Below, one piece after another: positions 25,480 through 54,935 of a stretch of 64,000 bases of DNA. The stretch is from Marsupella aquatica. Its lineage: Eukaryota; Plantae; Marchantiophyta. The DNA is taken from assembly GCA_973895155.1 (NCBI GenBank), contig OZ316892.1:31055802-31119801 (forward strand), in the 5' to 3' direction. Below the pieces are notes generated by a model. That model was not told the origin of the DNA, searched no databases, and was given only the letters and a program-made list of their open reading frames with translations. How positions within the stretch are numbered: the stretch's first letter is position 1; each line of letters starts with the position of its first letter. A program made the translations under genes and the position numbers.

Positions 25480-28250
25480 AACTATATATGCACATTCTGG
25501 ACACCAATGGATGCGATGTTGACTCCTGAAATGGCTCCATGATCCACAGCCCGCTGTATGATTCTACTGAGGGCATCAATTGCAATAATGAAGAGGATTG
25601 GTGAAAGAGGACAGCCCTGTCGTACAGAGCGCCTCAACGAGAACGATGGGGCCATTATCCCCATTCAGCAACACTGCATTTTCTCCATCCAGCTTATAGA
25701 AAGCCTTGGCCACGTCCAGCTTCATAAGAATGTAGTGCAGTCCGGATGAGTCAGCATGATGAAGCAGCTCGCTGAGTAAGAGTAGTGAGTGATGGATGTT
25801 GCGTCCCCGGCAGAAAGGCAAATTGTTGTTGAGGTGAGATATGAAGCGTTGGAGAACAGGAATGAGCCTGAGCTGAACTGCCTTGGCCCCAATTTCGTAC
25901 AACACATTCAGAAGAGTAATGGGTCTCTTGTTGGAAAGCAGACGCTGGTCATTTTTCTTGCACAGCACAGCAAGACAAGAATCCCTCTATTGAATTCAGA
26001 GCTGAAAGTTTCCTCTCTCAGACCATGTGTAATGGCGCGCCTTGAGGAGAGACGGCCCGACTGTCTTCCAATTGGCCACAAAGAATTCAACAGGGACTCC
26101 ATCCGGGCCTGGACATTTGTTAGAGGCAAGAGCTCTGGCAGCTTTCTCCAATTCCTCAAGAGTCAAGGGCAAGTCCAAGGTTTAGGGTTCAGCACCATTA
26201 ATCCTGTCAATCTGCAAAGCAATAACCTGAGCAAGTTGGTCAGGGTGGATGGCACTAAACCCTAAACCCTCCTCCATCTCGCTCCATTCAGACACCAGTT
26301 GCCCATCCTTACGGAAAAGGCAGGGGATTTTGTTGCCCATTGCCATTCCTTCGAAAGATTTGAAATAAATGTTGCAACATTTATTACCATCCTCAATCCA
26401 TCTCGTTTGTAGTATAATGTCCTTCCACTCGGCACGCTCACCATCAAATTCATTAACAGTGGCCTGTGCATAGAGATCTTGTGGGTCCAACTCAAGACGC
26501 AGCTGTGCTTGGGCCAAGTTCCCTCGTAGAATCGACTCCCGTAGATGGCGCTCTGCAGCCCTCTCTTTGCCACAGCACCTGTCCACCTTCCTAGCAATAT
26601 TAAGACAATGAGATAGCGTGGCATCAGGTGTCAGCTCCTCCCGCTCCTCCTCCTCCTGTGCAATTCTATCTTGATATGCTGTCTGTAATTGATGTGCAGT
26701 ATTCATCCTGTGTCGAGAGAAACATTTTGTGGAAGTGAGCGGACGAATTGTTGCACAGACAGACAGGGTCATGGTGAGACAGAGAATGGAGAATTTACAG
26801 TTCAGCTCCTTTGGTAGTACTGTCAATTCTTCTGATAATCCGATCCCCCCCTACGGCTACTAGCCTGAGTCCGAGTTTTGTGACGGTGCCTCCTCTTACT
26901 GGCCCAGCTGAATTTCAAGTGCGTCGGTTGCTGCAGGAAAGTAAAGTATCCTCTAAATGGAATCTCCTCTTCAGGTGACGCCAGGCTCTCAATTCACTTC
27001 CAGCGACGATGCTGGTGGTTCTTTAGGGTCTTTCCTGCCCTTAATCATGTCATTTTGATACCCCCCATGAAAATCCATTTGCTAGACGGGTCCAGCAGAT
27101 TAAAGAGTTCCTGCCGGAGATCAGTTCTCTCCCTGGGTGTGTTTGGCCCATATACACCTAGGATTCCAATCCTCTCGAAAGTGGCATGGTTGATGCAAAC
27201 CCATACAGCCCGTGTGCTGGCAAGACCCCATTCACCGGTAAGAAGCCGAGTTGATCTTTACTAGAAAAAAATTGGAAACTTCATACATTGTCATTCCTCG
27301 ACGGGTTGAGTGCGAATGAACGATTGGAGTGTGACAAGTATAGGGCTGGCGTCTGGTCGTCTACAAGGTTTAGGATTTGGGGTGGATGATCCTTGGAAGC
27401 CTTTACCGTGTCATTGTTGATTCATTTGTTTGGTGTTCTTCTCTTCCGGAGCGGAGGTGTGTTGAGCAGCTGGCCGTAGTGGACAATCGTGTGGTAGGCA
27501 TTCAAGCGGCTGTCCACTCCACCGTTGTGGGCACGGGCATTGGAAGCTACCACGCTGCACCGAAGCGTGGACAATTTAGGTGAATGATGGAAGGACGTCG
27601 TCATGAAGCGCAAGGTAGGATCAGGGTGTGCAGCTCCGGGGCCAGCAAAGAAGGCTCGATCCGCTGAGTCATTTCAGGAAGTTTAGGGTCTAGAAGATAG
27701 AGTGGAGCACAGAAGGGCGACGTGCCAGGGTTGTGCATGAAGAAAACAAAAGATGACATGGAGAGCATCGGCCCCGAGGGTTATAGAGCGTTTGGGGTGA
27801 CGAGGATGACAGGCACTCCCACCTTTTAGAGGTTGGATTCCAAATCAGAGCGGAGTCCCCCGAGGCGAACTAGTGCTGCCCAGCCTAATCACAACATCGA
27901 TATTGAGAGGAGTCCGACAACCGAGTTGGAGGATAAGCAAGTCGATAGTTCTGATGGTGGAGGTGTTGCACCCAGTTTATGACGGTATGAAAGTCGTTGC
28001 GAGAACCGATGAGTGTCCGGCAGTAACAGAAGTGCAGGCGTCAAGCGATTACTTTTCTCTGCCTAGGGAGATGGGTGCCTACCTGAGTTTAGGGTAGTCG
28101 GTGAAGCGGATAAGATTCAGCACCAGTTGCAAGAAGCTTGAACGCGAGAGGGTTTAGGGTTTAGAGCTAAGGACGTCGGGAATGATGCGCTGATGAATAA
28201 AATTGTTATCATGGCAGAGGAGCAACTTGAACTGTAGGAAAAGGTTAAAG
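25480..28250 (-). mobile_element. degraded L1-like LINE (ORF1 remnant, endonuclease, RT), 3'-truncated
   Basis: Frameshifted fragments RWIEDGNKC, PLTLEELEKA..KCPGPDGVPVEFF, RPITLLNVLY, MKLDVAKA, SVRQGCPLSPILF, FADD-like at the end. Confidence 0.88.
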
Positions 28251-29639
28251 ATTTAGGAGGAAAGGTTTCTGAGGTGTCGGGCTACGGCAGATTACTTCTT
28301 CGAATAGTTAGTAACGTATAACGGGTTATGAGTCCTTTAAGTAGCAGGTAAAGTCTGTCTGTCATGGGTTGTGCGTAGATCCCTTTTGTGGAGTTGCTCA
28401 GTGACCATGGCAGTTCCCACCCACACTATTGCTGGTGTGACTGTAATTCCATTTGTGCTGTAATGATGTTTGGGAGTCACCGGTTTTTTGCGACTGTGTT
28501 CTGCTGTGTCACCCTGTGTCGACATGACTACTTTCGGGAGGCACACTTGTGTTGTAGACTTCTACAAAGGTGGGATACACTCCAAAACTTCCATTCTGCG
28601 ATGTGCACAATGTGAAATAGAAGAGGAGAGGTACGCCCAGCAGCTGAAACTCATTTTTGCTATGAACTCATTATTTAACCACCCCCGTCGACCCTGAGCG
28701 ACGCTCGCCCGAAAAGCCCGTGGCTCCCCGCACGTTTTATTTATGTAGGATAGGATAACGCATCCCGAAAGGGTTGTGAGCTGGAGGGGTGTTTTGCAGC
28801 CCATCATCCACGTGAGGGTTCCATATGGTATTTAAGAAACATTTGCCTCACTTCTATATATGGACTTTACTGTGTTGTGAGGATGGGCCTAGCAAATTTC
28901 TGCCTATAAATTCCATACCAACATCTTATTGCTAATCTGAGCATTGTACCCGAGTTGTATTCAGATAAAGAGATGGATATATGGTTTAGGGTTAACGGTT
29001 GGGGGGCGCGGTGTGGAGGGCGCGATTGGGGGGCTTAGTGTGATGGGAGGGTGTGGTGCTGTTGTAACCTGGGTCGAAATTAGGACCTTGACCTTGTGTG
29101 TTTACAACGGAACCCTAAGTTGGGTTCGCCTTGTGTGTCTTGGTCAATGAACACATTCCCCCGGTAAATGCCAAAAATTTGCAATGGCCAAGTACAAGTT
29201 TTGAAATTGCAAATGGTCTGCAAAGAAAACGCTCAAATGCTCGGCAAACAGTACTCCTTCTTGAGATCAAAAGTCGTAGCCTGTGACGCCGCCGGTACGG
29301 CGGTTAATGAGTGATTCAGTCTAACTGCGCTCGGCACGCGCGTTAGGTGGGTCTTAGGCCGCTATTATTAGCATAATGACAGTATTTAGGTAATCATTAG
29401 GGGTAGGACATCATTAGGCAATAAGGGGGACCTCAGGTTCGGGCTGGCGGCGGGTCGCTATTCGCACACCCGGGTTATGAGCATGGAGTGGCCCCTCCCT
29501 CGGGTCCGTATAACGAACTTAAGGAAGCGGCCACTGACGCACGCTGACTCAGACCGATGGAGTGGCCGGTACACCACAAGCGTGAGCGGTTCAACCTATG
29601 GGCGTCGAGGAGACGTCGGGGATCGACAAGCCCTCAAAG

Positions 29640-29646
29640 TATAAAA
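29640..29646 (+). promoter_or_regulatory. TATA box (TATAAAA) of the 5' LTR
   Basis: Canonical TATAAAAGGGG, 108 bp upstream of the LTR-ORF ATG; identical copy at 39761-39767. Confidence 0.7.
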
Positions 29647-29747
29647 GGGGAGCCAACCCTTTGTAGTGCACCAGTCCATCAGTCCACGCGCCAGCTTCGA
29701 CCCCAGCTCTCTCGTTCTATCTAGGTCGCCACTACTATCTCCTCTGA

Positions 29748-32408
29748 ATGTCGCACACGATCCTCTCCAGCTCGGCCATTCGATTCTGGACGCAGTTCCT
29801 ATCTACCGGAAGGCACTTGGCCGATTCATTGAAACACGCCAACCCGCGCCGATACGAGATCGAACGCGAATACGAGAGAGCCATCCGCCTAGCAGGACGA
29901 CACCACTACGTCCTTAACTTTGACTACCCGTCTCAGAGCGAGCTTTACCGACCAGCTGAGGTATCTGGGTACTTCTTTGACGGAGACAAATATATCGGGT
30001 TCTGGGAAGCATTGCTTCGGCTTCCGGACGAGGTCTTCAATATCCCGGGTACAATCGACCTGCAGCGACATCACTTCGACCACATCCCTGCCCAGGTTCG
30101 GGCAGTCATTAACGGCGAGTCCAGTACCAACCGTTCGACAAGGGCGTCCGCACTCGCTTCGGAGAACTTCTACCAGCACCTACAGAGCTTCATGGGAACT
30201 CGGCCATCAACCAACATGACCAACTCAGCCGGACCCGTACCCGTACCCGTACCCGTACCCATACCCGTACCCGTGCCCATGCAACCTCAGCTTCAGCTTC
30301 AGCCTCAGCCGCAGCCTAGCCAAACCCCACCACCTATCACCCAGCCAGCACAGGTACGCTCCGTCATCAACGCGGTGGATCTTAGCGATGACGACGAGGC
30401 TACCCCACCCTTGACCAGGCGGCCCAGAGGAACAAGCGCTCGGGGGGCCGACACTATACCGTCCCCACCCCCTGCTCTGACCCCAGGAGCGGCCCCAGCA
30501 GACAACATGGTGACCGTGGCCGCCCCGGGCCCGTTACCAACCGCAGTGGCACTCCCCAGGCCCGATCGGGAGGATGGGGAAGTATCACCTTCCCCGAGTC
30601 AGTCACGGGGAAAGAAGAGAAAGGAATCCGCCAGTGCATCCGGGTTACCGTTAGCCACGGTAGCCGTAGCCAAGGTAACGATGCATCGCATGGGGGAAAA
30701 CGTTCACAGCAACATCCTCCATCCCAAGCATGCGGTGTACCTGAAGACTCAGGGATTTGAGCACCTCGCCTCTCTCCCCTGGAACACTTGCAGGTACTAC
30801 GGGGAGGACATGACAGAATTCGTCAAGAATTATGACGACGTACGTCAACAGACTCGGCTGCGGGGAAGGAATATGTCCCTCACAGAAGAACGGCTCAAGA
30901 TGATCTTCGGGTTACCCGAAGGTGACCATCGAGTCGAATCACGGGCTCCCGGGGGCAAGGGGGCCAAGTACCAATCTTCAAGTTTTCCCTCAGAGGGATC
31001 AGTAGACAACGGGTTCGTGATGAGGACCTGCCTCATGCCCGAGATAGCTGAGCGGCTGGAGTTCCAGAGGTACGCTCTCCACTTGATGGAACCCCGGGGG
31101 GAGATCTCCGCCGCCCAGGTCATCCAGGTCGAGAACTATCGACCTAGGAAGTGGGCGTCGTACTTCGCTAAGAAATTCCATGAAGAGATGGAGCGACGAA
31201 GGAAGACGCTGTACATTGGCGGGAAGGCGTATTTCGCTAGCCACATCGAAATCATTCTTGAGTGGTATGCCCGGTTTGATCGACGAACCCTTCCCCGCAT
31301 CAACGTTACAAAGCTGGTCCCAGCTAGGTGGGTTTTTCCGGCATTGGAGAGACGGCCCCAACCCGAGGCCCGAAGTCCAGTGGACACGCCAGCTTCACCC
31401 ACCCCACCTCCACAAATAGCTGTAATTGTAACCGAGGAGGCGCCGGAGGGGTCGGTCGTCGCAACCGTTGATGCGACCCAACTAGTCGGGCTAAGTACAG
31501 AAGTTGGTACGGCAGAGGTCTTACCCGAACCCGGGTCTCCCAAGGACCCGCCGGTGGCAATTCCGGAGAACCGGACATCGCTGCAGGAGGATACTCCGGC
31601 CCCTTCCAACGTTATGTCCCCAGGGCTGGACGTCACTGCCCCGGCCCCTGCGCGTGTTGATGTCTGCCCGTGCCCAAATCCGGACAGGCACAACTTGGAC
31701 CACCCGGAACTCTTCGTACAGGGTACGTTTCTGAACGGGCTTCTGGGAGATTTCTCTCATCAAATTGCCCGGGATACCGGGGAGTTCATGGCTCGGAAGG
31801 TAGCCTGTTTCTTCAATCAGGAGTTGGTTGCCGCCGTAAAGGCAGGGCGGGCCCAGTCGGAGGCCCTTCAGAGGATAGAGCGGTACCGGGAGGAGTCCGT
31901 GTACCTAAAGAACGAAGTGGCGGCTCAAGAGGCTGAGCTTCTGCAACTATGACCCAAGGTTGCAGCCGCCGATGAGTTGTTAGCAAAGGCGTACGCTCTT
32001 ACCGCCCTAGCCGAACAGGCCAAAGCTGGGAACGAGGCCAAGATTACACGACTCCGGAACCAGATTGACAGTTTGAAGAAACAAGCTGTCACCTGGCAGA
32101 AAGACCTGGAGGAGGCCGAGGAGCGAGCCCAGCGGGACGCGACGGAGATAGCCACGCTGCAGGCCGAGATGGCGCGGCTCCAAATCGAGGCCGAGAAGCA
32201 GGACCAGCTGGCGAGTAAACTGGCGAGCGACGCCCAGCAGCTGGAGGAGGCATGTCAGGAGGCAGCAGAGGAGACGGACGTGGCGAGGCGAGAGAATGAA
32301 TCTCTGCTGGACCAGGTCCAGCTCCTCAAAGCGGACAATGACAGGCTTCGAAGGCAGCGGGATGGCCGTTCCCATTCGGGCGGCTCTGGCAAGCGTGCCA
32401 GGCATTAG
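29748..32408 (+). pseudogene. 5'-LTR copy of the LTR-encoded ORF with one nonsense mutation
   Basis: Colinear with 39869-42529; CGA>TGA at 31950-31952 splits it into 734-aa and 143-aa ORFs. Confidence 0.93.
30234..30318 (+). repeat. coding hexamer microsatellites (CCCGTA)n and (CAGCYT)n encoding PV and QP/QL linkers
   Basis: Directly visible; second copy at about 40355-40439. Confidence 0.85.
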
Positions 32409-33322
32409 CGGCGGAGTAGGAATAGATTAGGATTAGGATTGGCTTAGTCAGGCTCTTGGGACAGGCACCTGCCTTAGGTACGGCAGCGCTGCCCTGCTGT
32501 CCAGCCTGCGTAGATTATGATCTTCTAATAAGACACAGCCGTTTTCCGGCCTGACTGTCAGCTTAGTTAGGACCTTGGTCAGCGAATCTTCGGCGGGAGG
32601 ACGCCCCGTTCCTCGGCTCTTAGTATTTAGTGCACCCCTCGGTAGAGGCAGGGGGGGGGGTTTTTAGTTTCAGAGTCGGACATCCGCGGGACATGCGGGG
32701 AGTCCCGACCTCTAGGAATGACAGAGTACCAAGGGGAGGGGGTAGGACTAAGCTTGTCGGGCGAGTGCGGAGCCGGGCTCCGTTGTAGTGTGCACCCTTG
32801 GCCTTGAACCTGTGCATTCCAGGGCTGTCGTGTCAACTAAGTGTACGCATATGTTCCCTTTGTAGTAAAAATCCTTTCCCATCATTTTTCCTTCGTGTAA
32901 ATCGAGATTGTATGCATGTGTGCGCATATGTGTGTGGGTTTCTCGTATATGGGTGGCAGCGCCGGGCCGAACGCACTACCCGAGACGTGCACAGGGTGCA
33001 GCCTGCGGGTAAGTGGTTGCGAGCACGGGTTGAGGACCTGTATCATCGAATCCGGATCGAAGGCGGACAGCACGAAGGCTTAGAAGCCCTTAAGCCGGGG
33101 TCGATCCTGCTATCGACTAAGGTACGTTCCGGCGGCGGAACACAAACCATACCTAGGAGGTGTCCGTATTTAGCAGTATGCGCACTTAGCGCTAGTTTAC
33201 GAGAATAAGGTGCATTACGTACTTCCCTTCCTGCCCGAACCCTCAGATTTACGAGGGATGTGCCCGTCTAAGCTGAAGTCTGAGTTAAGGCCGAAGCCTA
33301 CGACGTGACATAGCCTTTGTTT

Positions 33323-33340
33323 TGGCGCTAGATGGAGGGG
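33323..33340 (+). promoter_or_regulatory. primer binding site TGGCGCTAGATGGAGGGG
   Basis: TGG-initiated 18-mer 12 nt after the 5' LTR; cognate tRNA not determined. Confidence 0.75.
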
Positions 33341-33433
33341 GCACTCTACATATCGTAGAGGGGAGACATGTGCGTATTCACCTAGGCAGGATACATCAGG
33401 ACGTAGTACTAACCATTGCATTTATATGAGTAA

Positions 33434-36400
33434 ATGCCCGTCACTCGTTCTCAAGCAGCTTACTTGAGGAGATTGACCAGCGAACGAGAAAGTGCAACCA
33501 CAACAAGCTCCGACTCGTCGGGCTCGGAGGACTCGCAATCGTCCCGACGTATGAACATACCCCCGGGATCTTCGGGGTCCGGTTCGACCGGCCCTGCTGC
33601 GGTTCCACCACCACCACCACCACCACCACCACCTATGGCAGCCGCTCCACCGGTGGCCCGCGCTGCTCAGGCGCCTCCACAAATATCGCAACGATCGCGA
33701 TTTCATTATCGACCTTTCAAAGGGCGTCATGGGGATGATCCGGATGAATGGTTGGATGAGTTTGAAGCCACTACTAAAGCTAATGGGGAAGACGCCATTA
33801 AGCTAACCGTCCTCCCGGGAGTAATGCGGGGAGAAGCTCGTCCATGGTACAACTCGTTACCACCCGGGACTACCTGGGCACAATTCCAAGCTGCATTGCT
33901 GCAGGAGTTTCGTGCCATTGGATCAGAACAACGTTCTCTATTAAAGATTGGCCAGCTTCGCATGGGAAAAAAAGAGTCCCTGCGGAAGTTCATTCAGAAG
34001 TTTCAGAAACTTGCGGCCAAGATCCGGCACAGGCCAGGAGACGCGCTCCAGCTTACATGGTTCCTTCATGGTTTGCCCACGAATATGCAATTCTGGGTAC
34101 GCCAGAATAATCCAATTTCAATGCAGGCGGCCATAGCGTGCGCCGAAACTTACCGGGAGTCCACCTATAACTCCCGGCGGAGCCAGCGAGCACGCCGCAG
34201 GAAGGGTAAGTACGAAACCTTCAGTGACAGTGACTCCGAATCGGACGACAAGAGGAAGAAGAAACGGAAGAAGAAGAAGAAACGGAAGAAGAAGAAGAAA
34301 CATCGTTCGACCTCGTCCAGCTCTGAGACGGAATCCAGTTCGGATTCAGCTTCAAGCATCGGATCCTCTACCTCCAGTTCATCAGGAAGTGACTTGGAGA
34401 GCGAAAGCCGGAGCAAAAAGAAGAAGAGACGAGTGAAGAAGGAGGGGAAGATTAAACCCCGGGCGTGAAGAACGATACCAGATCCGAAGGCTGCCGAAGC
34501 AGACAAGCTGAACGAAATCACGGATCGACTCAAAGCACTGTCAGTACATCTTGCGGAGAAGCCGGTGGAGAAGAAGAAGCCATCTGAGATTCGAGCCCAT
34601 GCGTGGTGTTCAAAGTGCTTCCAATCCGGCCATGTGGTGCAGGAATGCCCAAGGTGGAAGAACCGAGTTCACCAAGTAGAGTTGGATGATGTTGACAACC
34701 TGGGCCCCGAATCGGAGTCCACGGAGTATTTCTTTGAGGACCCTCCTGATTCCGTGTACCAGATTTCAACGGTTGGTCCGCGTAATTTAGCGGGTAGAAC
34801 TGCGTACCCCTACCCAAGTAATGGCCGGAGTTTCCAGGTTATCAGTAACCCGAGCATCCCTCCTAAGCCAGGGATTTGGCGGTCCCCGGTTTGTTACAAC
34901 TGTGAAAAGTCAGGACACTTTGCGAGGGAATGCACCGAACCAAGACGTCAGGGAGATGGCCGAGGCACCCCACTATGTCAAGTTTGCAAAACGGAGGCTC
35001 ATTCCACGGCCAACTGTCCGTTGGTAATCGCTGCTCGAACGAGTGCGGCTAGACCAGTCACGAGCGATGCAGTCGTCCAAATGATTGCTGTAGAATGGCA
35101 AGATGACAACACCGAGTGGGTGAATCTGGTGGACGTGGCGGAACACCCTAATCCATTGGATGAGGCCGAGTGCTACCGAGTGTCGACAAGGGCCGAACGG
35201 AAGGAAGAAAAGACGGAGGAGAAACGGAGGAAAAAGCAAGATACTACTCCAGTGCAGCCAGCGATAAATATACCCCCGGAAAAGGACGATGACTACCGAC
35301 GGGACGACCCGAAGCTATTTTTCCCCCGCATCGAAGAATTGGTAAAGAAACAGCTGGAGGCTTACGAAGCTCGGGAATACCAGAAGGCAATCGATAAGGA
35401 CATCAAAGCAGCCGAGACAGCCCGGCGTCAGGAGCAAGAAAAGCAAGATAAACAAGAGGAAGCCAAGCAGCAGCCAACGAAAGAAACAAAGGAGGACTAT
35501 GATATTAAGGAGGACGTGAAGAGTTGCCCGGTTACAGCGACGGTGGGGCAACTGCTGCAGAACAACCCACAGTACAGACGACAACTGAGGGAGTTGCTCA
35601 TGGGTCACCGAAGGAGAAGACTACCCCGAGTTGGGAGTGCGGACTGCAACATGATATGCGAGGACCTTGGAGCGCCGGACATCTCGATCGAAATTAATAA
35701 CTGTACCATCAAGATGGTCCTTGTAGACGGAGGAGCGGGAGTCAACATCATGACTGAAGAAACGTCAGTCAAGTTAGGATACCTCACGTATCAACCCACG
35801 GCCCGAGCTATCAGATTAGCAAACGGGGCAAGGGTCCTCCCATTAGGCACGCTCACACGAGTGCTCACTCTGGTGGGAGGGGTAGAGTTCTATCTCAACT
35901 TCTTAGTCATGAGGCCGGTTTGTCCCTCCTCTTATCCGGTTCTTCTGGGCAGGCCGTGGCTGTACGGTGGCCGTGTAGTCACGGATTGGGGAAAGAAGGA
36001 GCTACGGTTCGGGGAACCCACCGTACGGGTATCCTGGGCAATGGACGATTATCAGGGAGAAACCCCACAAGGACCCGAGGAATATGATTCGGAGACCTCG
36101 GAGGAAGAGGAACTCAATATGATCGAACTCATCTCGTCCCTATCCGAGGAAGATGTCTTCGGAGTTGAAGCAACCCGAGAAACACATCTCCTAAATTACC
36201 CGAGGCTGCCATTGAGTCCACCCCAAGTACATCTACCGTCGGGGATGAGGAAACGCACGAACAACTCGTCGAGACGGAGGACACGGCTCCAGCTAAGCAG
36301 GGAGCCGTGGCTACTCCTTCCATTTCAGAGCCTTGTAACCATGAACCAGCCCAACAACCGCCTGAGGCCGAAAACTCGAGACCGAGACATAAAAAGCGAG

Positions 36401-36439
36401 TCTCATGGGATCCGTCCATTCCGCAATTGGAGGAAGTAA
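33434..36439 (+). CDS. gag: gag-protease, one in-frame TGA at 34466-34468
   Basis: MPVTRSQ start; capsid (PFKG..DPDEWL..MRGEARPWY); Lys/Ser-rich tract; three CCHC knuckles; protease LVDGGAGVNIM..LLGRPWL; ORFs 33434 and 34565 share a frame. Confidence 0.9.
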
Positions 36440-39435
36440 ACCCCATCCCGAGACCAATCCCGGTCCCACCCATGTACGGAGGGGTTCGGTTAGCTGAGCT
36501 TGACGCGAGCCTGGACCCGAGTCTGCGAAACCAGGTTGAAGTCATCAGGAAGGAGCACTACCGGAAGTACACTATTGGGATGGACAAATCTTTTAACCTG
36601 GGCCACGCTTTGACGGGGAAGGCTGAAAAAGCCATCCAAGCTTTGCTCAAGGAATATGAAGATGTGTTTGCATGGAGTCATCATGATTTAACAGGCGTCT
36701 CCCCCGAGTTGGGAGAACACACAATCGATCTGAACCTAGGAGCCCATGCGGTACGACAGCGACAACGTCGCATGAATCCGAGGTACTCCATCTTAGTGAA
36801 GGAGGAAATTGATCGTCTCCTCGCCGCCAATATCATTTACCCGGTAATGGCCAGCGACTGGGTCTCTCCCATTGTCATTGTACCAAAGAAGGGAGGTACG
36901 GATGGAAAACCTAAGATTCGTATCTGTCAGGACTACCGTAAGCTGAATGACGCAACCCGAAAAGACCATTACCCATTACCATTCACGGATATGGTTCTAG
37001 ATATGGTGGCCCGAAATGAAATCTATACATTTCTTGACGGGTATTCAGGTTATAACCAAATCTGGATTCGTCTCGCGGATCAGCTCAAAACAACGTTCAC
37101 TACGGAGTGGGGAACGTTCGCATTTCGGAGGATGCCTTTTGGTCTGTGTAACGCCCCGGCTATGTTTCAACGCCTTATGATGAATATCTTCCACGATTTC
37201 CTACGGGAATTTTTGGAGATATTTATCGATGACTTTGCCATCTTCGGAACCGTTGCCATGCACCCCGAACACCTACGACGAACGTTGCAACGATGCCGAG
37301 ATGTTAACCTCAAACTACATCCCGCCAAATGCTTCTTCGGGGTAGAGGAGGGGGTGTTACTCGGGCATCGTGTGTCCAAACGGGGCATTGAGGTGGACCA
37401 AGAGAAAGTTGCGGCCTGGATGGCGGTGGTGTTCCCCTTGGATCAAAAAGCAGTACGATCCTTCTTGGGCTGCGTAGGGTATTACCGCCGGTTCATTAAA
37501 GACTTTGCTAAAATTGCGTTGCCCTTAACTGAGATGATGAAGAAGGACGCAGCGGTCGAGGAAACACCCCGGAGACGGATTGCTTTTGAGGAACTCCGTA
37601 AACGACTCACCACCGCGCCTATCATGGTCACCCCAGACTGGAATAAGGAGTTCCACGTGTATGTCGATGTGTCAGGGTTCTGTATCGGATCCGTACTTAG
37701 TCAGCTAGATGAGGATGGACGTGATCACCCCATCTATTTCGCTAGCCGTCAACTATTTGCAGCCGAAAAGAATTATTCCCCCACTGATCGAGAAGCTTTG
37801 GGAATAATCTACTCGTGTAAAAAGTTCCGACACTATCTGCTAGGCTACAAGGTCATTTTCCACACGGATCATGATAGCCTGAAGTACATGGTCAACAAAG
37901 CGGATGTGACAGGACGGATAGCCCAGTGGGTGCTACTTCTCCAGGAATTTAATTACGAAGTTCGGGTTCGGCCAGGAAGGGGACACCTCAATGCCGATTT
38001 CTTTTCACGACTGGACGGCGTACCAGTCGATCAGCCAATTGATGATATTTTTCCGGATGAGGAGTTGTTCCACGTAGGGGAAGGGACACCAACGTGGTAC
38101 GGCTCAATAATCACCTTCCTTTTAACGGGCCGCATCCCTGACGGCATCAATCAGGAGGCCGCCGCTGTGTTTTTACAGAAAGCCGGGCCTTACGTCATGA
38201 TACAGGGTCACCTACATAAGGAAGGTATTAACGGAAAGTTACGACGCTGCTTAGAGTATAAGGAGACACTTATCGTGATAGGGGCCCTGCATGAAGAAGA
38301 AGCTGGAGGCCATTTCGCGGCAGTTACGACAGCCCGAAAGATTCTGGACTCGGGGTATTGGTGGCCTACGTTGCATCAGGATGTACAGCGCTTCATTAAG
38401 GGCTGTGACTTGTGTCAGCGAGCGGGGGCCCCGAGGCGGGCTCATCATCACCCGCTCACATCTGTGCTTCCATTGGCACCATTCGAAAAATGGGGAATTG
38501 ATTATATCGGACCGTTCACTCCCGTTACCCGAAGGCGAAGGTGCAGATACATCCTATTAGCTATTGATTACTCCACCAAATGGGTCGAAGCGCGGGCTAC
38601 GGTAAAGGACGACGCCGCAACCAGTGCCAGATTCTTATACGAACAGATTTTCACCCGATTCGGACCGCCCTTAGAATTGGTAAGCGACCGTGGAACCCAC
38701 TTCCTCAATGACACCGTAGCCCAGCTTACGGAGCGTTACCTAGTCAAGCACCGCAAGACTACCCCATATCATCCTAAAGCCAACGGGATGGCGGAGAGAG
38801 CAAATGGTATCATTGGGAAGATCCTCAACAAAACTGTAGCTGCGCACAAAACGGATTGGGATGATAAGTTGTACGCGGCGGTGTACTCGTATAATCTAGC
38901 TTACAAAACTACTACGAGTCATAGCCCGTACTTTCTGGTGTTCGGCCAACATTCGTTGGTGCCCGTCGAATTTGAAGTGCACACTCCACGGGTCAGCATT
39001 CGGGATCGCTTACCTGAATCTGAAAGTCTGTCAGACCGAGCTTATCAGATTGAAGCCTTGGAAGAAGCACGGCTACTGGCAGCTCGACACACCGTGAAGA
39101 AACAGGCAACTTCGAAGAAGCAGCACGACAAAGGACTACGGAGGGTCGACGTCGTGGCAGGCGATCTAGTCCTTCTGTACGATAGTAGGTACATGCAGTT
39201 TCCAGGGAAGCTGCATACCCGGTGGTTGGGGCCCTTCCTTGTCAATCAGATCTACCGAAACGGATCTTTGGAGCTTGCGACGTATGCCGGCGATTTACTC
39301 CCCACGCGAATCAGCTACGATCGTGTAAAAAAGTACCACCATCAAGATGACGACGCCGATAGCGATGTTCGCGAGGACGCTTCACAATTAAGCAGGGAGC
39401 TATGTGACGCCGCCGGTACGGCGGTTAATGAGTGA
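36169..39435 (+). CDS. pol: gypsy pol (RT, RNase H, integrase) in the -1 frame relative to gag-PR
   Basis: CQDYRKLN, FLDGYSGYNQI, MPFGLCNAP, FIDD, VDVSG..EKNYS, HHCC zinc finger, WGIDYIGP, SDRGTHF, NGMAERAN, WLGPF; frame opens after TGA 36166-36168 and ends 33 nt inside the 3' LTR. Confidence 0.96.
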   Translation, partial: SNPRNTSPKLPEAAIESTPSTSTVGDEETHEQLVETEDTAPAKQGAVATPSISEPCNHEPAQQPPEAENSRPRHKKRVSWDPSIPQLEEVNPIPRPIPVPPMYGGVRLAELDASLDPSLRNQVEVIRKEHYRKYTIGMDKSFNLGHALTGKAEKAIQALLKEYEDVFAWSHHDLTGVSPELGEHTIDLNLGAHAVRQRQRRMNPRYSILVKEEIDRLLAANIIYPVMASDWVSPIVIVPKKGGTDGKPKIRICQDYRKLNDATRKDHYPLPFTDMVLDMVARNEIYTFLDGYSGYNQIWIRLADQLKTTFTTEWGTFAFRRMPFGLCNAPAMFQRLMMNIFHDFLREFLEIFIDDFAIFGTVAMHPEHLRRTLQRCRDVNLKLHPAKCFFGVEEGVLLGHRVSKRGIEVDQEKVAAWMAVVFPLDQKAVRSFLGCVGYYRRFIKDFAKIALPLTEMMKKDAAVEETPRRRIAFEELRKRLTTAPIMVTPDWNKEFHVYVDVSGFCIGSVLSQLDEDGRDHPIYFASRQLFAAEKNYSPTDREALGIIYSCKKFRHYLLGYKVIFHTDHDSLKYMVNKADVTGRIAQWVLLLQEFNYEVRVRPGRGHLNADFFSRLDGVPVDQPIDDIFPDEELFHVGEGTPTWYGSIITFLLTGRIPDGINQEAAAVFLQKAGPYVMIQGHLHKEGINGKLRRCLEYKETLIVIGALHEEEAGGHFAAVTTARKILDSGYWWPTLHQDVQRFIKGCDLCQRAGAPRRAHHHPLTSVLPLAPFEKWGIDYIGPFTPVTRRRRCRYILLAIDYSTKWVEARATVKDDAATSARFLYEQIFTRFGPPLELVSDRGTHFLNDTVAQLTERYLVKHRKTTPYHPKANGMAERANGIIGKILNKTVAAHKTDWDDKLYAAVYSYNLAYKTTTSHSPYFLVFGQHSLVPVEFEVHTPRVSIRDRLPESESLSDRAYQIEALEEARLLAARHTVKKQATSKKQHDKGLRRVDVVAGDLVLLYDSRYMQFPGKLHTRWLGPFLVNQIYRNGSLELATYAGDLLPTRISYDRVKKYHHQDDDADSDVREDASQLSRELCDAAGTAVNE
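39390..39399 (+). promoter_or_regulatory. polypurine tract (AAGCAGGGAG)
   Basis: Purine-rich run 3 nt before the 3' LTR TG. Confidence 0.65.
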
Positions 39436-42400
39436 TTCAGTCTAACTACGCTCGGCACGCGCGTTAGGTGGGTCTTAGGCCGCTATTATTAGCATAACGA
39501 CAGTATTTAGGTAATCATTAGGGGTAGGACATCATTAGGCAATAAGGGGGACCTCAGGTTCGGGCTGGCGGCGGGTCGCTATTCGCACACCCGGGTTATG
39601 AGCATGGAGTGGCCCCTCCCTCGGGTCCGTATAACGAACTTAAGGAAGCGGCCACTGACGCACGCTGACTCAGACCGATGGAGTGGCCGGTACACCACAA
39701 GCGTGAGCGGTTCAACCTATGGGCGTCGAGGAGACGTCGGGGATCGACAAGCCCTCAAAGTATAAAAGGGGAGCCAACCCTTTGTAGTGCACCAGTCCAT
39801 CAGTCCGCGCGCCAGCTTCGACCCCAGCTCTCTCGTTCTATCTAGGTCGCCACTACTATCTCCTCTGAATGTCGCACACGATCCTCTCCAGCTCGGCCAT
39901 TCGATTCTGGACGCAGTTCCTATCTACCGGAAGGCACTTGGCCGATTCATTGAAACACGCCAACCCGCGCCGATACGAGATCGAACGTGAATACGAGAGA
40001 GCCATCCGCCTAGCAGGACGACACCACTACGTCCTTAACTTTGACTACCCGTCTCAGAGCGAGCTTTACCGACCAGCTGAGGTATCTGGGTACTTCTTTG
40101 ACGGAGACAAATATATCGGGTTCTGGGAAGCATTGCTTCGGCTTCCAGACGAGGTCTTCAATATCCCGGGTACAATCGACCTGCAGCGACATCACTTCGA
40201 CCACATCCCTGCCCAGGTTCGGGCAGTCATTAACGGCGAGTCCAGTACCAACCGTTCGACAAGGGCGTCCGCACTCGCTTCGGAGAACTTCTACCAGCAC
40301 CTACAGAGCTTCATGGGAACTCGGCCATCAACCAACATGACCAACTCAGCCGGACCCGTACCCGTACCCGTACCCGTACCCATACCCGTACCCGTGCCCA
40401 TGCAACCTCAGCTTCAGCTTCAGCCTCAGCCGCAGCCTAGCCAAACCCCACCACCTATCACCCAGCCAGCACAGGTACGCTCCGTCATCAACGCGGTGGA
40501 TCTTAGCGATGACGACGAGGCTACCCCACCCTTGACCAGGCGGCCCAGAGGAACAAGCGCTCGGGGGGCCGACACTATACCGTCCCCACCCCCTGCTCTG
40601 ACCCCAGGAGCGGCCCCAGCAGACAACATGGTGACCGTGGCCGCCCCGGGCCCGTTACCAACCGCAGTGGCACTCCCCAGGCCCGATCGGGAGGATGGGG
40701 AAGTATCACCTTCCCCGAGTCAGTCACGGGGAAAGAAGAGAAAGGAATCCGCCAGTGCATCCGGGTTACCGTTAGCCACGGTAGCCGTAGCCAAGGTAAC
40801 GATGCATCGCATGGGGGAAAACGTTCACAGCAACATCCTCCATCCCAAGCATGCGGTGTACCTGAAGACTCAGGGATTTGAGCACCTCGCCTCTCTCCCC
40901 TGGAACACTTGCAGGTACTACGGGGAGGACATGACAGAATTTGTCAAGAATTATGACGACGTACGTCAACAGACTCGGCTGCGGGGAAGGAATATGTCCC
41001 TCACAGAAGAACGGCTCAAGATGATCTTCGGGTTACCCGAAGGTGACCATCGAGTCGAATCACGGGCTCCCGGGGGCAAGGGGGCCAAGTACCAATCTTC
41101 AAGTTTTCCCTCAGAGGGATCAGTAGACAACGGGTTCGTGATGAGGACCTGCCTCATGCCCGAGATAGCTGAGCGGCTGGAGTTCCAGAGGTACGCTCTC
41201 CACTTGATGGAACCCCGGGGGGAGATCTCCGCCGCCCAGGTCATCCAGGTCGAGAACTATCGACCTAGGAAGTGGGCGTCGTACTTCGCTAAGAAATTCC
41301 ATGAAGAGATGGAGCGGCGAAGGAAGACGCTGTACATTGGCGGGAAGGCGTATTTCGCTAGCCACATCGAAATCATTCTTGAGTGGTATGCCCGGTTTGA
41401 TCGACGAACCCTTCCCCGCATCAACGTTACAAAGCTGGTCCCAGCTAGGTGGGTTTTTCCGGCATTGGAGAGACGGCCCCAACCCGAGGCCCGAAGTCCA
41501 GTGGACACGCCAGCTTCACCCACCCCACCTCCACAAATAGCTGTAATCGTAACCGAGGAGGCGCCGGAGGGGTCGGTCATCGCAACCGTTGATGCGACCC
41601 AACTAGCCGGGCTAAGTACAGAAGTTGGTACGGCAGAGGTCTTACCCGAACCCGGGTCTCCCAAGGACCCGCCGGTGGCAATTCCGGAGAACCGGACATC
41701 GCTGCAGGAGGATACTCCGGCCCCTTCCAACGTTATGTCCCCAGGGCTGGACGTCACTGCCCCGGCCCCTGCGCGTGTTGATGTCTGCCCGTGCCCAAAT
41801 CCGGACAGGCACAACTTGGACCACCCGGAACTCTTCGTACAGGGTACGTTTCTGAACGGGCTTCTGGGAGATTTCTCTCATCAAATTGCCCGGGATACCG
41901 GGGAGTTCATGGCTCGGAAGGTAGCCTGTTTCTTCAATCAGGAGTTGGTTGCCGCCGTAAAGGCAGGGCGGGCCCAGTCGGAGGCCCTTCAAAGGATAGA
42001 GCGGTACCGGGAGGAGTCCGTGTACCTAAAGAACGAAGTGGCGGCTCAAGAGGCTGAGCTTCTGCAACTACGACCCAAGGTTGCAGCCGCCGATGAGTTG
42101 TTAGCAAAGGTGTACGCTCTTACCGCCCTAGCCGAACAGGCCAAAGCTGGGAACGAGGCCGAGATTACACGACTCCGGAACCAGATTGACAGTTTGAAGA
42201 AACAAGCTGTCACCTGGCAGAAAGACCTGGAGGAGGCCGAGGAGCGAGCCCAGCGGGACGCGACGGAGATAGCCACGCTGCAGGCCGAGATGGCGCGGCT
42301 CCAAACCGAGGCCGAGAAGCAGGACCAGCTGGCGAGTAAACTGGCGAGCGACGCCCAGCAGCTGGAGGAGGCATGTCAGGAGGCAGCAGAGGAGACGGAC

Positions 42401-43429
42401 GCGGCGAGGCGAGAGAACGAATCTCTGCTGGACCAGGTCCAGCTCCTCAAAGCGGACAATGACAGGCTTCGAAGGCAGCGGGATGGCCGTTCCCATTCGG
42501 GCGGCTCTGGCAAGCGTGCCAGGCATTAGCGGCGGAGTAGGAATAGATTAGGATTAGGATTGGCTTAGTCAGGCTCTTGGGACAGGCACCTGCCTTAGGT
42601 ACGGCAGCGCTGCCCTGCTGTCCAGCCTGCGTAGATTAGGATCTTCTAATAAGACACAGCCGTTTTCCGGCCTGACTGTCAGCTTAGTTAGGACCTTGGT
42701 CAGCGAATCTTCGGCGGGAGGACGCCCCATTCCTCGGCTCTTAGTATTTAGTGCACCCCTCGGTAGAGGCAGGGGGGGGTTTTTAGTTTCAGAGTCGGAC
42801 ATCCGCGGGACATGCGGGGAGTCCCGACCTCTAGGAATGACAGAGTACCAAGGGGAGGGGGTAGGACTAAGCTTGCCGGGCGAGTGCGGAGCCGGGCTCC
42901 GTTGTAGTGTGCACCCTTGGCCTTGAACCTGTGCATTCCAGGGCTGTCGTGTCAACTAAGTGTACGCATATGTTCCCTTTGTAGTAAAAATCCTTTCCCA
43001 TCGTTTTTCCTTCGTGTAAATCGAGATTGTATGCATGTGTGCGCATATGTGTGTGGGTTTCTCGTATATGGGTGGCAGCGCCGGGCCGAACGCACTACCC
43101 GAGACGTGCACAGGGTGCAGCCTACGGGTAAGTGGTTGCGAGCACGGGTTGAGGACCTGTATCATCGAATCCGGATCGAAGGCGGACAGCACGAAGGCTT
43201 AGAAGCCCTTAAGCCGGGGTCGATCCTGCTATCGACTAAGGTACGTTCCGGCGGCGGAACACAAACCATACCTAGGAGGTGTCCGTATTTAGCAGTATGC
43301 GCACTTAGCGCTAGTTTACGAGAATAAGGTGCATTACGTACTTCCCTTCCTGCCCGAACCCTCAGATTTACGAGGGATGTGCCCGTCTAAGCTGAAGTCT
43401 GAGTTAAGGCCGAAGCCTACGACGTGACA
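39403..43429 (+). repeat. 3' LTR (4027 bp)
   Basis: TGTGACG...CGTGACA followed by TSD TAGCC. Confidence 0.97.
39869..42529 (+). CDS. intact 886-aa LTR-encoded protein: N-terminal globular region, Pro-rich linker with NLS-like RGKKRK, PMD/Transposase_32-like domain, C-terminal coiled coil
   Basis: ATG-to-TAG ORF wholly inside the LTR, downstream of a TATA box; G..L..LPW..EF..N...RG....L...L...FGLP pattern resembles the accessory domain of Athila/Tat-type extra ORFs. Confidence 0.9.
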   Translation: MSHTILSSSAIRFWTQFLSTGRHLADSLKHANPRRYEIEREYERAIRLAGRHHYVLNFDYPSQSELYRPAEVSGYFFDGDKYIGFWEALLRLPDEVFNIPGTIDLQRHHFDHIPAQVRAVINGESSTNRSTRASALASENFYQHLQSFMGTRPSTNMTNSAGPVPVPVPVPIPVPVPMQPQLQLQPQPQPSQTPPPITQPAQVRSVINAVDLSDDDEATPPLTRRPRGTSARGADTIPSPPPALTPGAAPADNMVTVAAPGPLPTAVALPRPDREDGEVSPSPSQSRGKKRKESASASGLPLATVAVAKVTMHRMGENVHSNILHPKHAVYLKTQGFEHLASLPWNTCRYYGEDMTEFVKNYDDVRQQTRLRGRNMSLTEERLKMIFGLPEGDHRVESRAPGGKGAKYQSSSFPSEGSVDNGFVMRTCLMPEIAERLEFQRYALHLMEPRGEISAAQVIQVENYRPRKWASYFAKKFHEEMERRRKTLYIGGKAYFASHIEIILEWYARFDRRTLPRINVTKLVPARWVFPALERRPQPEARSPVDTPASPTPPPQIAVIVTEEAPEGSVIATVDATQLAGLSTEVGTAEVLPEPGSPKDPPVAIPENRTSLQEDTPAPSNVMSPGLDVTAPAPARVDVCPCPNPDRHNLDHPELFVQGTFLNGLLGDFSHQIARDTGEFMARKVACFFNQELVAAVKAGRAQSEALQRIERYREESVYLKNEVAAQEAELLQLRPKVAAADELLAKVYALTALAEQAKAGNEAEITRLRNQIDSLKKQAVTWQKDLEEAEERAQRDATEIATLQAEMARLQTEAEKQDQLASKLASDAQQLEEACQEAAEETDAARRENESLLDQVQLLKADNDRLRRQRDGRSHSGGSGKRARH

Positions 43430-43559
43430 TAGCCCTCTGTGAACCGCCCGACCACAACGACGACTCTTCCACAGCGACCACACGCAACTTTTAATGTAGG
43501 AAACAACCTATTGTTGTAGGCATTTGTGATGAGATTAGCTCCGTGAGGGTTTCATTCCA

Positions 43560-46640: not shown

Positions 46641-48498
46641 CTATTGAATCTCAGGAGCGGATTTGAATTTTCTTTGTTTATCCTGAAAGAAAGCTGTGTC
46701 TGACCATACATACAAACATTGGTAATGTAATCGAATTGATGATGTATGCAGGTCTCACCTGATCCAAACGGTAACGGAGATTGGTCTCATTTGCCAATCG
46801 AAGTTGTTGATTTTCCTGCCCCATATGTTGTATTAACTTGGCAGCTTTTTCAGTTTCTTCTTGAAGCAGGGTCATCTTTAGTCGATAAGCTGCTCTTGAA
46901 AATGTAACTGATCCCTGCTCTACTAATGTGGACAAGTCAAATCCATCAATGTTGTGCAGTGCCTCGTGAAGATAAAATTCCATGGCTTTTTCCCTTTCCT
47001 TCGAAGCTTCTATGATGAAGGACTCCTTGGCCTCAACTTTGGGATTCCCTGCCTCTTGCAAACGTCGGGTGAGGTCGTCAAGGAGTTGTAAATCCGTGTC
47101 GAGCTGCTTCTTCAATCCCTGTACTTCTTCTTCTACTTTTCGGCATTGGCTCCGTTGGTTCTGTATCTCTCCCTGGAGCCTAGCATTTTCCTCTTTCAGT
47201 GCGTCTAGTTGCTTACATATTCTAGGCTCACACGGCCCCAATTTGTCTGACCTCTGTTCCAAAGCCGTGCCGTCGATTGTCATGCTCTGTACCGTTCCCT
47301 TGTGTAATAATGTACCTTCGGATTTGTGCAATGACTCTGCGGCGTCCTGATGAAATCCCATGTTCCGGCTGGGGCTCTCTGCAAACTCTTTTCCCTCGTT
47401 TACCGATGTGACGGCTACCCTCTGTTCGAAACCTTTCAATTGAGATGCATCTACTGATTCCAGCTTCTGTACATGTACATCCACCCGTCCGTCCTCCGAA
47501 CCGCCTTCCACCATGGAGGATTGTAAGGCGTGGTTGCTCGCCCTGAAGTTGTGCAAAATGTATGCTCCCTGTAGAGTGGCTTCTTCTCCACGATCTTCTT
47601 CGCCTTCTGAACTGTGATCGCGTGCTTCTTCCTGTTCCGGATTAGCTGCAGTCCCATGTGGTAAGGTGGATTCACTGGTTACCCAGTTTTCCCCGACGGC
47701 ATGACTGTAAGCAACGGTTTGCCGGTGACTCCTATGCCATTGGCGATTTTGCGGTGCAACATCAGGGATGGCGGTGGTATCCCTGATCGGGTTCACCATT
47801 CTTTTCTTTAGCACCCAACAAATGATGTAAGCAAGAAGTGAGGGAAAAGGAGGAACCGATTTGGACCCGAGTTTCTGAAGCAACTCTGCCTTCCACACTT
47901 GCAACGGGTGGAGCTCGCCTTCGAGCGCTCGAGCGGCGATCGTGATATGGTCAATTGTCCCATGATGGTAACCAGATTTTATCATCACCCATTTGGTGAA
48001 AAACTCTATATACTTGCGGACCTCCAAATTTGTCACCGTCCCGTATTGGATCTTCCCGGCACGGATCGAGGATCTCAAGTCACGGTCCGACCTCAAAAAG
48101 CCGATAATCTGCCGTGGAGTGTAAGGTGTGCACTTCACTCTTGTCAGGAGCTGCGATGGAACTAAACCTGGAATCCCAAACATGTTTGCCAATTCTTGGT
48201 TGAGCACCCTAATAAGCGGTGTCCTATCGTACTCGATGCAAAGTGACGCCTCATCCCCATAGACTGATCGTATATTCCGATGATAATATGCAGCCTCTGC
48301 CAAGGTCAGATCGCAACCCACCCGGACCATACCCAGGCATTTGGCACGACGGAAGATGCTCTCAAATTGAGTAATGTAAGCGGTGTCCGTTCGCGAGTTC
48401 CGAATGTTGGCCTCTGCCGCCATTGTAACGGTTTTAGAGCCATCGATAACTGCAGTGTTTCGAGTAGTCTCCGCGCGAGACCTCTTTCTGCTCGACAT
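46641..48498 (-). CDS. intact two-exon gene, distant PMD/Transposase_32-like domain plus coiled coil (exons 48498-46759 and 46682-46641)
   Basis: MSSRKRSR start; NQELANMFGIP, EVRKYIEFFTKWV and PSLLAYII match the LTR-ORF motif order; CAG/GTGAGA donor and TTTCTTTCAG acceptor define a 76-bp phase-0 intron ending DKQRKFKSAPEIQ*. Confidence 0.7.
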
Positions 48499-54471: not shown

Positions 54472-54611
54472 GGTAGGGCTCTGCAGGTCCCAGTGTGATC
54501 AAAATGGCCCGCACAAACTTCAATTACGCTTTCAAAAACCCTTTTAAATAACCCTAAACGTTTTGTCGACCAAGATGTGCTTATCGCCACGCCTTGGAGC
54601 CCCAAAACGAG

Positions 54612-54935
54612 TGAGAGAATGATAGTCCCGTCTACTCACTCTTGTCAAACCTTGCTTGCGCATCACCCTGAAAGAGCGCGATAGAATCACAGTCCCTTCT
54701 ACTCACTCTGTTGAACCTCGGATGCCCACAACCCTGAAAGAGCGCGAGAGAATCATAGTCCCTTCTACTCACTCTGTCAAACCTCGGATGCCCACAACCC
54801 TGAAACAGCACGGCAAAATGATAGTCCCATCTCCTCACTCTTGTCGAAACTCGTCCCACAGCCCAGAAAGAGCGAGAGAGATTGATAGTCCCAGCTCCTC
54901 ACTCTTGACGAACCTCGCTTGCCCACAAACCCTAC
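54612..54935. repeat. about 66-bp tandem repeat, 5 units, immediately upstream of the 54471 start codon
   Basis: Units GAGAGAATSATAGTCCCTTCTACTCACTCT(T)GTCAAACCTCG..CCCACAACCCTGAAAGAGCGC visible at about 54612, 54680, 54745, 54811 and 54874. Confidence 0.9.

Follow-up and report, generated by a model that had tools for sequence, protein, structure and literature searches.

Accessory open reading frames (ORFs) of one fold group, which includes the families ATHILA ORF-1 (PF03078), PMD (PF10536), Transposase_28, and Transposase_32 (PF20167), are already known from the Athila, Ogre, and Retand retrotransposons of the Gypsy type, and anti-silencing by VANC proteins is already known from DNA transposons. 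Here, we analyzed a stretch of 64,000 nucleotides from the liverwort Marsupella aquatica (assembly GCA_973895155.1, contig OZ316892.1, forward-strand positions 31,055,802 to 31,119,801), hereafter the window, and identified at window positions 29282-43429 a non-chromovirus Gypsy element of 14.1 kb with an 886-codon gene inside its approximately 4-kb long terminal repeats (LTRs), the product of which is predicted to contain a VANC-like domain.

VANC proteins, including VANC21 with its DUF1985 domain, are encoded by VANDAL elements, which are Mutator-like DNA transposons. They bind motifs of 8-9 bases, which often occur as tandem repeats, and remove DNA methylation from the family that encodes them (PMC5735166, in excerpt), and have been called dicot-specific (PMC13547354, in excerpt). 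The VANC/DUF1985 domain is structurally similar to the PMD of the host proteins MAIN and MAIL1, which are PMD-C proteins that oppose Polycomb at specific motifs (10.1101/2024.09.27.615353 and PMC13547354, both in excerpt); PMD-A clades are encoded by Gypsy elements (PMC5418596, in excerpt), and coiled-coil oligomers were predicted for both VANC and the Athila domain (PMC13547354, in excerpt). The product of the gene described here is likewise transposon-encoded and shares with VANC a predicted core fold, a coiled coil, and variable low-complexity flanks. It differs in belonging to a bryophyte retrotransposon rather than a DNA transposon, in the position of its gene within a terminal repeat, in an identity of 9-11%, and in that no tandem target array was found. 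Compared by description, the host proteins MAIN, MAIL1, and MAIL2 resemble it through their reported VANC-like fold and motif-dependent protection from Polycomb, but are encoded by angiosperm host genes.

Athila, Ogre, and Retand elements resemble the window element in being non-chromovirus Gypsy elements and in encoding an accessory protein that has a coiled coil and belongs to the same fold group. Their ORFs hold the classic sense position at the 3' end of the internal region, as in two relatives of the window element from metagenome contigs (loci L002 and L003), and an Athila-like primer-binding site (PBS) is present in L001 and L002, within a tract that we take to be of the tRNA-Asp type; the PBS of the window element departs from this tract after TGGCGC. 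The window element differs further in that its ORF is located inside the LTR and not between pol and the 3' LTR, pol runs into the LTR, and the protein has an N-terminal domain without a known match and no transmembrane segment. A preliminary description of this DNA had stated that accessory ORFs normally lie in the internal region, and reviews agree (PMC7264820; PMC6317226, in excerpt), the second being a survey in which an additional RNase H defines Tat. Among Gypsy elements of non-seed plants, Phygy and Selgy share with the window element a polyprotein that fills the internal region and the lack of a second RNase H, and are described as short and without extra ORFs, with NCGN targets for Phygy (PMC6317226, in excerpt). 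The window element, in contrast, measures 14.1 kb and has 4-kb LTRs, an LTR gene, and a 5-bp target-site duplication.

Coding sequence that resides in LTRs is known from retroviruses, namely MMTV sag and the overlap of HIV nef with the LTR. There, too, the coding sequence is duplicated in both LTRs, but the proteins are unrelated, the ORFs much shorter, and the functions immune. In plants, Retrosat2 has 3.2-kb LTRs and an ORF0 described as lying upstream of gag-pol (PMC3485330, in excerpt), and the one plant match in the literature searched concerned a host gene inside an element (PMC1560396, in excerpt). This literature, in which subscription journals were incompletely covered and supplements excluded, contained no report of a comparable LTR-resident gene in plants.

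Structure of the element and its LTR-resident gene

Self-comparison of the window revealed 2 LTRs in direct orientation, both starting with TG and ending with CA and 99.4% identical to each other: the 5' LTR of 4029 bp (29282-33310) and the 3' LTR of 4027 bp (39403-43429), flanked by the identical 5-mer TAGCC as target-site duplication (29277-29281 and 43430-43434). All features of the element are on the plus strand. At LTR position 359, both LTRs have a TATA box, TATAAAAG (29640-29647 in the 5' LTR and 39761-39768 in the 3' LTR), the only consensus TATA upstream of the ORF and a presumed promoter, and the first ATG after it opens a frame of 2661 bp that fills 66% of the LTR. This frame is an open gene of 886 codons in the 3' LTR (39869-42529) and is broken in the 5' LTR (29748-32408) by a stop at codon 735 (31950-31952). 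A non-coding tail of 900 bp with a UGUA cluster at 42903-43028 completes the LTR (42530-43429).

The internal region starts with a 12-bp spacer and a PBS-like tract (33311-33340, with the tract at 33323-33340 starting TGGCGC and no tRNA assigned), and a similar spacer of 11-12 bp, with TAG at its start, precedes the PBS in L002. It is followed by gag, zinc knuckles, and protease at 33434-36439 (Retrotrans_gag E 1e-9, zf-CCHC E 1.7e-6, gag-asp_proteas E 4.5e-4) and by pol with reverse transcriptase, RNase H, and integrase at 36169-39435 (Pfam scan). This domain order, together with the LTR ends, target-site duplication, PBS, and polypurine tract (39390-39399), identifies a Ty3/Gypsy element. 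Because the pol frame stops only inside the 3' LTR, 33 bp past its start (39435), no room is left for an internal extra ORF. No chromodomain was detected behind the integrase (Pfam, E up to 1), which separates the element from chromoviruses, and no second, archaeal-type RNase H, which separates it from Tat, as RT_RNaseH was found only ahead of the integrase and there is no space after it. The gag-pol region of this copy has 1 in-frame stop (34466-34468) and 1 frame change between the protease region and pol; the frame change is likely private to this copy because family contigs differ in length near that point.

We regard the architecture, a TATA box and an accessory gene inside a Gypsy LTR, as nearly certain to be real. 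The preliminary description had correctly noted that a TATA box and a 2.66-kb ORF occupy about two thirds of both LTRs and that pol enters the 3' LTR directly, without an internal extra ORF. Its complete 886-codon gene in each LTR holds for the frame, but only the 3' copy is open, and the third LTR copy that it credited with a TATA box and a full-length ORF is a fragment. This third copy (2813-5414, plus strand; self-comparison) contains only the 3' 2.6 kb of the LTR, with the first 1424 bp missing within the window, and thus has neither a TATA box nor codons 1-319, and carries a stop at codon 818. Adjoining it at 1-2812 (plus strand) is the 3' part of a Copia-like element, with reverse transcriptase and RNase H motifs seen by eye. 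Downstream, at 5432-9518 (plus strand), lies a homologue of the gene, homologue B, as an open gene of 1113 codons (5432-8773) and an LTR-like tail ending in CA. It aligns with the window protein at tblastn E 2e-18, with 29% identity over the core and an alignable N-terminal domain, and its tail is colinear with the LTR tail of the window element (family A; score 98, compared with 48 +/- 7 and a maximum of 66 in 200 shuffles). Homologue B likely represents a second, diverged family with an LTR-resident gene, with its 5' part beyond the window, and the order of nesting is likely Copia in a family-A LTR in a family-B LTR.

The 2 LTRs of the window element show 24 differences (K2P 0.0055), and 21 of the 22 substitutions are transitions, all of them in CG (14) or CHG (7) context, where CG alone makes up 26% of C/G positions (p 1e-4). 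Because all 21 transitions fall in these contexts, the copy was methylated after insertion; the insertion is young and real. Family A is little depleted in CpG (observed/expected 0.88-1.05), compared with 0.37 for the neighboring Copia pol.

The gene-bearing LTR as family norm

The preliminary description had allowed that most family members might have short LTRs and that the layout might be a one-off duplication or an assembly artefact. Instead, the long gene-bearing LTR is the norm of the family: 7 of the 10 listed sequencing runs contain the LTR or part of it, and contigs from 4 runs with 4 organism labels cover the ORF in 30 of 30 bins. None of the 7 runs is recorded as RNA, which has no bearing on expression. 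The number of contigs matching the element was 13,201 in run X1 and 18,360 in run X2. Relative to the internal region, the median summed depth was 5.5 (X1), 7.5 (X2), and 2.7 (X5) for the ORF and 3.1, 3.8, and 2.1, respectively, for the non-coding LTR ends. Summed contig depth is no measure of copy number, and we read from it no more than that the ORF is at least as common as the LTR ends; the ratios hint weakly at solo LTRs.

An artefact could be suspected from the target-duplication 5-mer, which occurs again after the 5' LTR. The 24 LTR differences with their methylation signature, the complete ORF coverage in all 4 runs, and independent relatives that share the layout and a similar spacer refute a one-off duplication or assembly artefact, to which we assign a negligible chance. 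The second TAGCC was itself dropped as a sign of artefact: the spacer of L002 is alike, and the 5-mer is likely native and a chance match.

Variation within the family points to constraint on the protein. Among the best-supported 40 of 343 variants, 24 are synonymous, whereas changes of the same kinds would be expected to give 11.2 (p 2e-5), and none introduces a stop, although this count is no formal dN/dS and its subset includes changes private to the window copy. The 7 indels in the ORF with a frequency of at least 15% are all in the Pro/Gln linker (40337-40402) and all in single contigs of X5 or X6, with none in X1 or X2, and of the 23 indels along the entire element, none of the best 12 lies in the ORF. 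The LTR-encoded protein is very probably under selection. The other possibility is a passenger, that is, once-useful or captured DNA that decays neutrally in the LTR, and the stops in 2 of the 3 window copies and in a further window homologue (homologue C, below) are what it predicts. The synonymous excess among those variants, the absence of a common frame-breaking indel in X1 and X2, and the persistence of 3 conserved regions and of open frames of 550-1113 codons at 23-33% identity across families run counter to neutral decay and make a passenger very unlikely.

Homologues of the LTR protein

A profile built from the 3 window copies of the core domain retrieved 86 proteins at E up to 0.001, and among 29 homologues looked up, 7 were from Calypogeia fissa and 2 from Riccia sorocarpa. 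Word-based searching with the full protein gave no match, nor did a word-based search with alignment A3 among proteins of 1587-4530 aa. The 3-part protein, with an N-terminal domain, core, and coiled coil, is kept in homologues down to 23-33% identity, with open frames ranging from 550 to 1113 codons across families; P0090 (906 aa), for example, has counterparts of the N-terminal domain, of the core (33% over aa 13-524), and of the C-terminus.

Homologue C, on the minus strand of the window (54471-51484), has the same core domain (34% identity to homologue B) and a coiled coil and is broken by stops. Upstream of it are a TATA-like box and a 5-copy tandem array of a 66-bp unit (54592-54917), a gene-plus-array layout reminiscent of VANC systems, and no LTR-like tail was seen. 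Approximately 1 kb downstream, at about 50400-49960 (minus strand), are 3 short exon-like pieces, presumably of a telobox-type Myb domain as judged by eye. An ORF of 618 codons with a coiled coil at 46678-48534 (minus strand) showed a faint likeness to the family in alignment and matched neither core profile. Further, 3 core-domain homologues, P0040, P0044, and P0060, 2 of them from Riccia sorocarpa, are co-annotated with weak DDE_Tnp_4 (Harbinger-type) pieces, and the core domain may thus also travel with DNA transposons in liverworts.

Domain composition and predicted fold

The LTR protein is composed of an N-terminal helical domain (approximately aa 1-120), a Pro-rich linker with KKRK, a predicted VANC/PMD-fold core (approximately aa 306-515; window 40784-41413), a further linker, a coiled coil (approximately aa 660-870), and a basic tail. 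The core was modeled confidently by AlphaFold (pLDDT 90.4, pTM 0.87, alignment of 68 rows). In Foldseek, DNA-bound VANC21 ranked first for this model (probability 0.98, TM 0.53, E 0.027), with the next row at probability 0.02, and an independent structure search among 48,161 PDB chains returned VANC21 as the sole chain with Z at least 5 (Z 8.3-8.4, rmsd 4.2, 211 aligned residues, 9-11% identity; next Z 2.2). The gap to the next row and the coverage of the full domain support homology to VANC21. A viral structure library gave no match at E up to 0.001. For the N-terminal domain, modeled at pLDDT 65, Foldseek returned no match, the best Z was 4.8, and Atlas reached 0.75; this is no proof of a new fold.

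At the level of sequence families, 9 of 43 homologues matched Transposase_32 (best E 1.6e-7, 31.8 bits), all below the Pfam gathering score of 45 bits, and none of the 43 matched the PMD, ATHILA, or DUF1985 profiles (E up to 0.05). Atlas returned Transposase_32, ATHILA, and DUF1985 at 0.81-0.82, below 0.9 and therefore as leads only. These results and the predicted model support placing the core in the Transposase_32/PMD/DUF1985 fold group, and judging from the model, the protein is likely to have a DNA- or chromatin-binding VANC/PMD fold.

What had been suggested about the protein before was partly borne out. Its NLS-like motif is represented by KKRK (289), RRRK (483), and KRAR (882); its coiled coil is C-terminal, with coiled-coil families below the cut-off as the only direct Pfam matches; and the AlphaFold and Foldseek comparison that had been proposed yielded VANC21 as the only clear PDB match. 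The PMD/Transposase_32-like domain stands by way of the homologues, below the cut-off, and the VANC21-like fold, but not as a direct Pfam match. With VANC21 as the best solved match, the idea of anti-silencing has firmer support than it had in the preliminary description. No transmembrane segment was found (top 19-residue hydropathy 1.13), and the protein is thus not env-like.

A candidate anti-silencing factor and its alternatives

We propose that the accessory protein acts as an anti-silencing factor of the VANC/PMD type, a reading that draws on the modeled fold and to which we give a probability of roughly 55%. The LTR would serve as a cassette with TATA box, gene, and a tail with poly(A) elements (the UGUA cluster), and an LTR-contained transcript would start at the TATA box and end in the LTR tail. 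The basic motifs would bring the protein into the nucleus, the coiled coil would oligomerize it, and the VANC-like domain would bind short motifs in the LTR DNA of the family, where the protein, acting in trans, would reduce the DNA methylation or H3K27me3 of every copy of the family. In Marchantia, H3K27me3 is found on 40% of transposons (PMC10952607, in excerpt). Such action in trans would allow single copies to decay even though selection maintains the gene in the family. Given the anatomy and what is known of LTRs in general, each insertion carries 2 gene copies and each solo LTR 1. The complete proposal, a self-contained anti-silencing cassette of promoter, VANC/PMD-fold gene, and targets that is doubled at each insertion and survives as solo LTRs, is more tentative, and we place it somewhat below even odds.

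Several observations weigh against an anti-silencing role. A shared fold is no proof of function, and a Z of 8.3 with an rmsd of 4.2 and 11% identity is a middling level, best Z values of 7-8 being common. The core profile had no sequence match to any PDB chain, VANC21 included, and the LTR protein had no Pfam match to PMD (PF10536), ATHILA (PF03078), DUF1985 (PF09331), or Transposase_32 (PF20167) at E up to 1. We found neither a VANC-type tandem target array nor a family-specific motif in the LTR, in a test that dispersed sites of 8-9 bp would escape; TTAG/TTAGG was considered as a target motif and rejected, being enriched in an unrelated Copia LTR and in host DNA too and within the shuffle maximum. 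The window copy was methylated after insertion, which speaks against a lasting shield from silencing, 2 of the 3 family-A gene copies in the window are interrupted by stops, and the ORFs of the 2 LTRs differ at 14 positions (7 synonymous, 6 missense, and 1 stop) in a manner that resembles post-insertion decay. Further, MAIN and MAIL1 were first described as silencing factors (PMC5418596, in excerpt).

This last point also bears on a self-limiting factor, one that would promote silencing or control copy number, with a dose that climbs as solo LTRs accumulate until the family is dampened. Transposons are released in MAIN/MAIL1 mutants (PMC5418596, in excerpt), the CG/CHG mutation pattern indicates methylation, and LTR depth exceeds twice the internal depth, all as such a factor would predict. 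The MAIL1 effect was later tied to the upkeep of MORC1 expression, an anti-Polycomb activity (10.1101/2024.09.27.615353, in excerpt), and X1 and X2 contain the family in great abundance, so that we consider self-limitation improbable. A more serious competitor, though still unlikely, is a nuclear accessory factor with the same fold that acts at another step, such as tethering of the integration complex to particular chromatin, import into the nucleus, or activation of the LTR in trans that leaves silencing marks in place. The fold, NLS-like motifs, and coiled coil fit it equally well, as do an integrase without a chromodomain match and the methylation of the copy after insertion, and nuclear or import roles have been proposed for plant accessory ORFs (PMC7264820). 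What favors anti-silencing over this competitor is that the only tested proteins of the fold group act on silencing (PMC5735166 and 10.1101/2024.09.27.615353, both in excerpt) and that 2 gene copies in each element and persistence in solo LTRs are more in keeping with a factor that acts in trans than with a particle component.

As a separate observation, the window contains at 61233-61907 (plus strand) an ORF with a Tet_JBP oxygenase domain above the Pfam cut-off (E 6.6e-12), in frame behind a coiled-coil ORF at 60267-61232. It is possibly a 5-methylcytosine oxidase in mobile DNA and, as such, an anti-silencing lead of its own.

Possible modes of transcription of the LTR gene and gag-pol

The position of the gene in the LTR allows 2 modes of transcription, between which we see about even odds. 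In the first, the TATA box is the sole promoter, the gene is part of a 3.3-kb R region at both RNA ends, and gag-pol is reached by splicing. This mode agrees with the single consensus TATA upstream of the ORF, the tail offering just a weak TATATG, and with a TACTAAC branch-point-like motif and an AG 3 bases ahead of the gag ATG (window 33408-33436). For Diaspora, predicted splice sites connect the LTR with gag (PMC1142308, in excerpt). In the second mode, the gene is part of U3, and the genomic RNA starts from another promoter, located in the 900-bp tail. In its favor, the internal gene of L003 also has a TATA-like box ahead of its ORF, and the entire LTR of L002 has about the length of this tail. 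Loci L001, L005, and L006 share a common donor-like GAGTGGTGAGG in the leader ahead of the LTR gene.

Lineage, relatives, and a proposed route of the gene into the LTR

The closest named relatives of pol are from Calypogeia fissa (66-67% identity) and Riccia sorocarpa (up to 56%), compared with approximately 42% for angiosperm sequences. In a quick tree, pol grouped with the liverwort and further sequences (support 99), apart from 4 angiosperm sequences (approximately 42% identity) that were taken as Athila-like without a reference label; the tree included no labeled Phygy reference. No pol relative was found among viral contigs. By sequence, the element is classed as a non-chromovirus, non-Tat Gypsy of a non-seed-plant lineage.

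We scanned metagenome contigs for pol and obtained 80 loci, of which 5 (L002, L003, L004, L006, and L041) matched the core profile in 6-frame translation. Direct testing for the core added L001 (E 6e-5) and L008 (E 3e-4), and L011 was not significant; in L005, the accessory ORF was recognized by eye and is cut by the contig end. The start of the LTR is marked in this lineage by a terminal motif, the last part of which is a purine tract and TG. Built from 5 loci other than the window element, its profile hit exactly 1 window site (39364-39402, E 1.5e-8), which includes the polypurine tract and lies directly ahead of the 3' LTR. The motif is located behind the accessory ORF in L002 and L003, which makes the gene internal, and right after pol and ahead of the accessory ORF in the window element, L001, L005, and L006, which makes it LTR-resident; the contigs of L001 and L005 end inside the ORF, and the L006 contig continues for another 218 bases past it. 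What follows the motif in L001 is a perfect 9-base inverse of the PBS-adjacent LTR end, and the ORF starts 514 bases further.

L002 (1-10852) has an end overlap of 123 bp and represents a whole collapsed element, in the order pol, purine tract, 742-codon accessory ORF, terminal motif, 1-kb LTR, PBS, and gag. Its accessory ORF is therefore flanked by 2 purine tracts, and in L003, too, a second purine tract separates the ORF from pol, and the TATA-like box lies ahead of the internal gene. The likely route is that the accessory gene was first an internal 3' ORF with its own promoter and would have become part of the LTR once plus-strand synthesis was primed from a site upstream of it. Such a shift needs an upstream priming site, and the second purine tract of L002 and L003 matches this requirement. 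Against a priming switch, which predicts a second terminal motif inside the LTR, the profile found no remnant of one there; a decayed motif seen by eye behind the stop codon was discarded for lack of profile support.

Trees of pol group the window element with L001, L005, and L006 (98 in the quick tree of 41 rows and 84.8/76 in a tree of 9 rows). The accessory-domain tree, contrary to this grouping, places L001 and L006 with the internal genes of L002 and L004 (98.8/100), and the LTR-resident layout had either 1 origin with later exchange of genes or 2 origins.

Neighboring sequence

Apart from the elements described above, the window contains a PPR-repeat gene fragment at 20441-21625 (plus strand; PPR_2 E 6e-48), a host gene amid repeats. 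Related broken ORFs at 10269-12420 (plus strand) and 26182-26850 (minus strand) are, by eye, pieces of non-LTR retrotransposons, and the 2 that were scanned had no Pfam match.

Implications

Thousands of plant Gypsy elements carry extra ORFs of the PMD/Transposase_32/ATHILA type, whose function is an open question (PMC7264820; PMC6317226, in excerpt), and the element described here links such an ORF to the solved fold of VANC21. With the gene, its promoter, and its presumed targets on 1 unit of 4 kb, it provides a compact test object that can be assayed in a liverwort model. Annotation pipelines treat the place of this 2.66-kb gene as non-coding DNA, and the relatives, some with the gene inside the LTR and others with it in the internal region, form a natural series for how an LTR can take up a gene. 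The element also bears on whether the VANC/MAIN fold originated in hosts or in retrotransposons. Its layout breaks the usual rule that formation of a solo LTR removes all coding capacity, and if the anti-silencing cassette is real, recombination that deletes the element would leave behind a gene that de-silences the family. In that case, no VANC-like system encoded by a retrotransposon would have been known before, and the fold would have existed in transposons long before the flowering plants.

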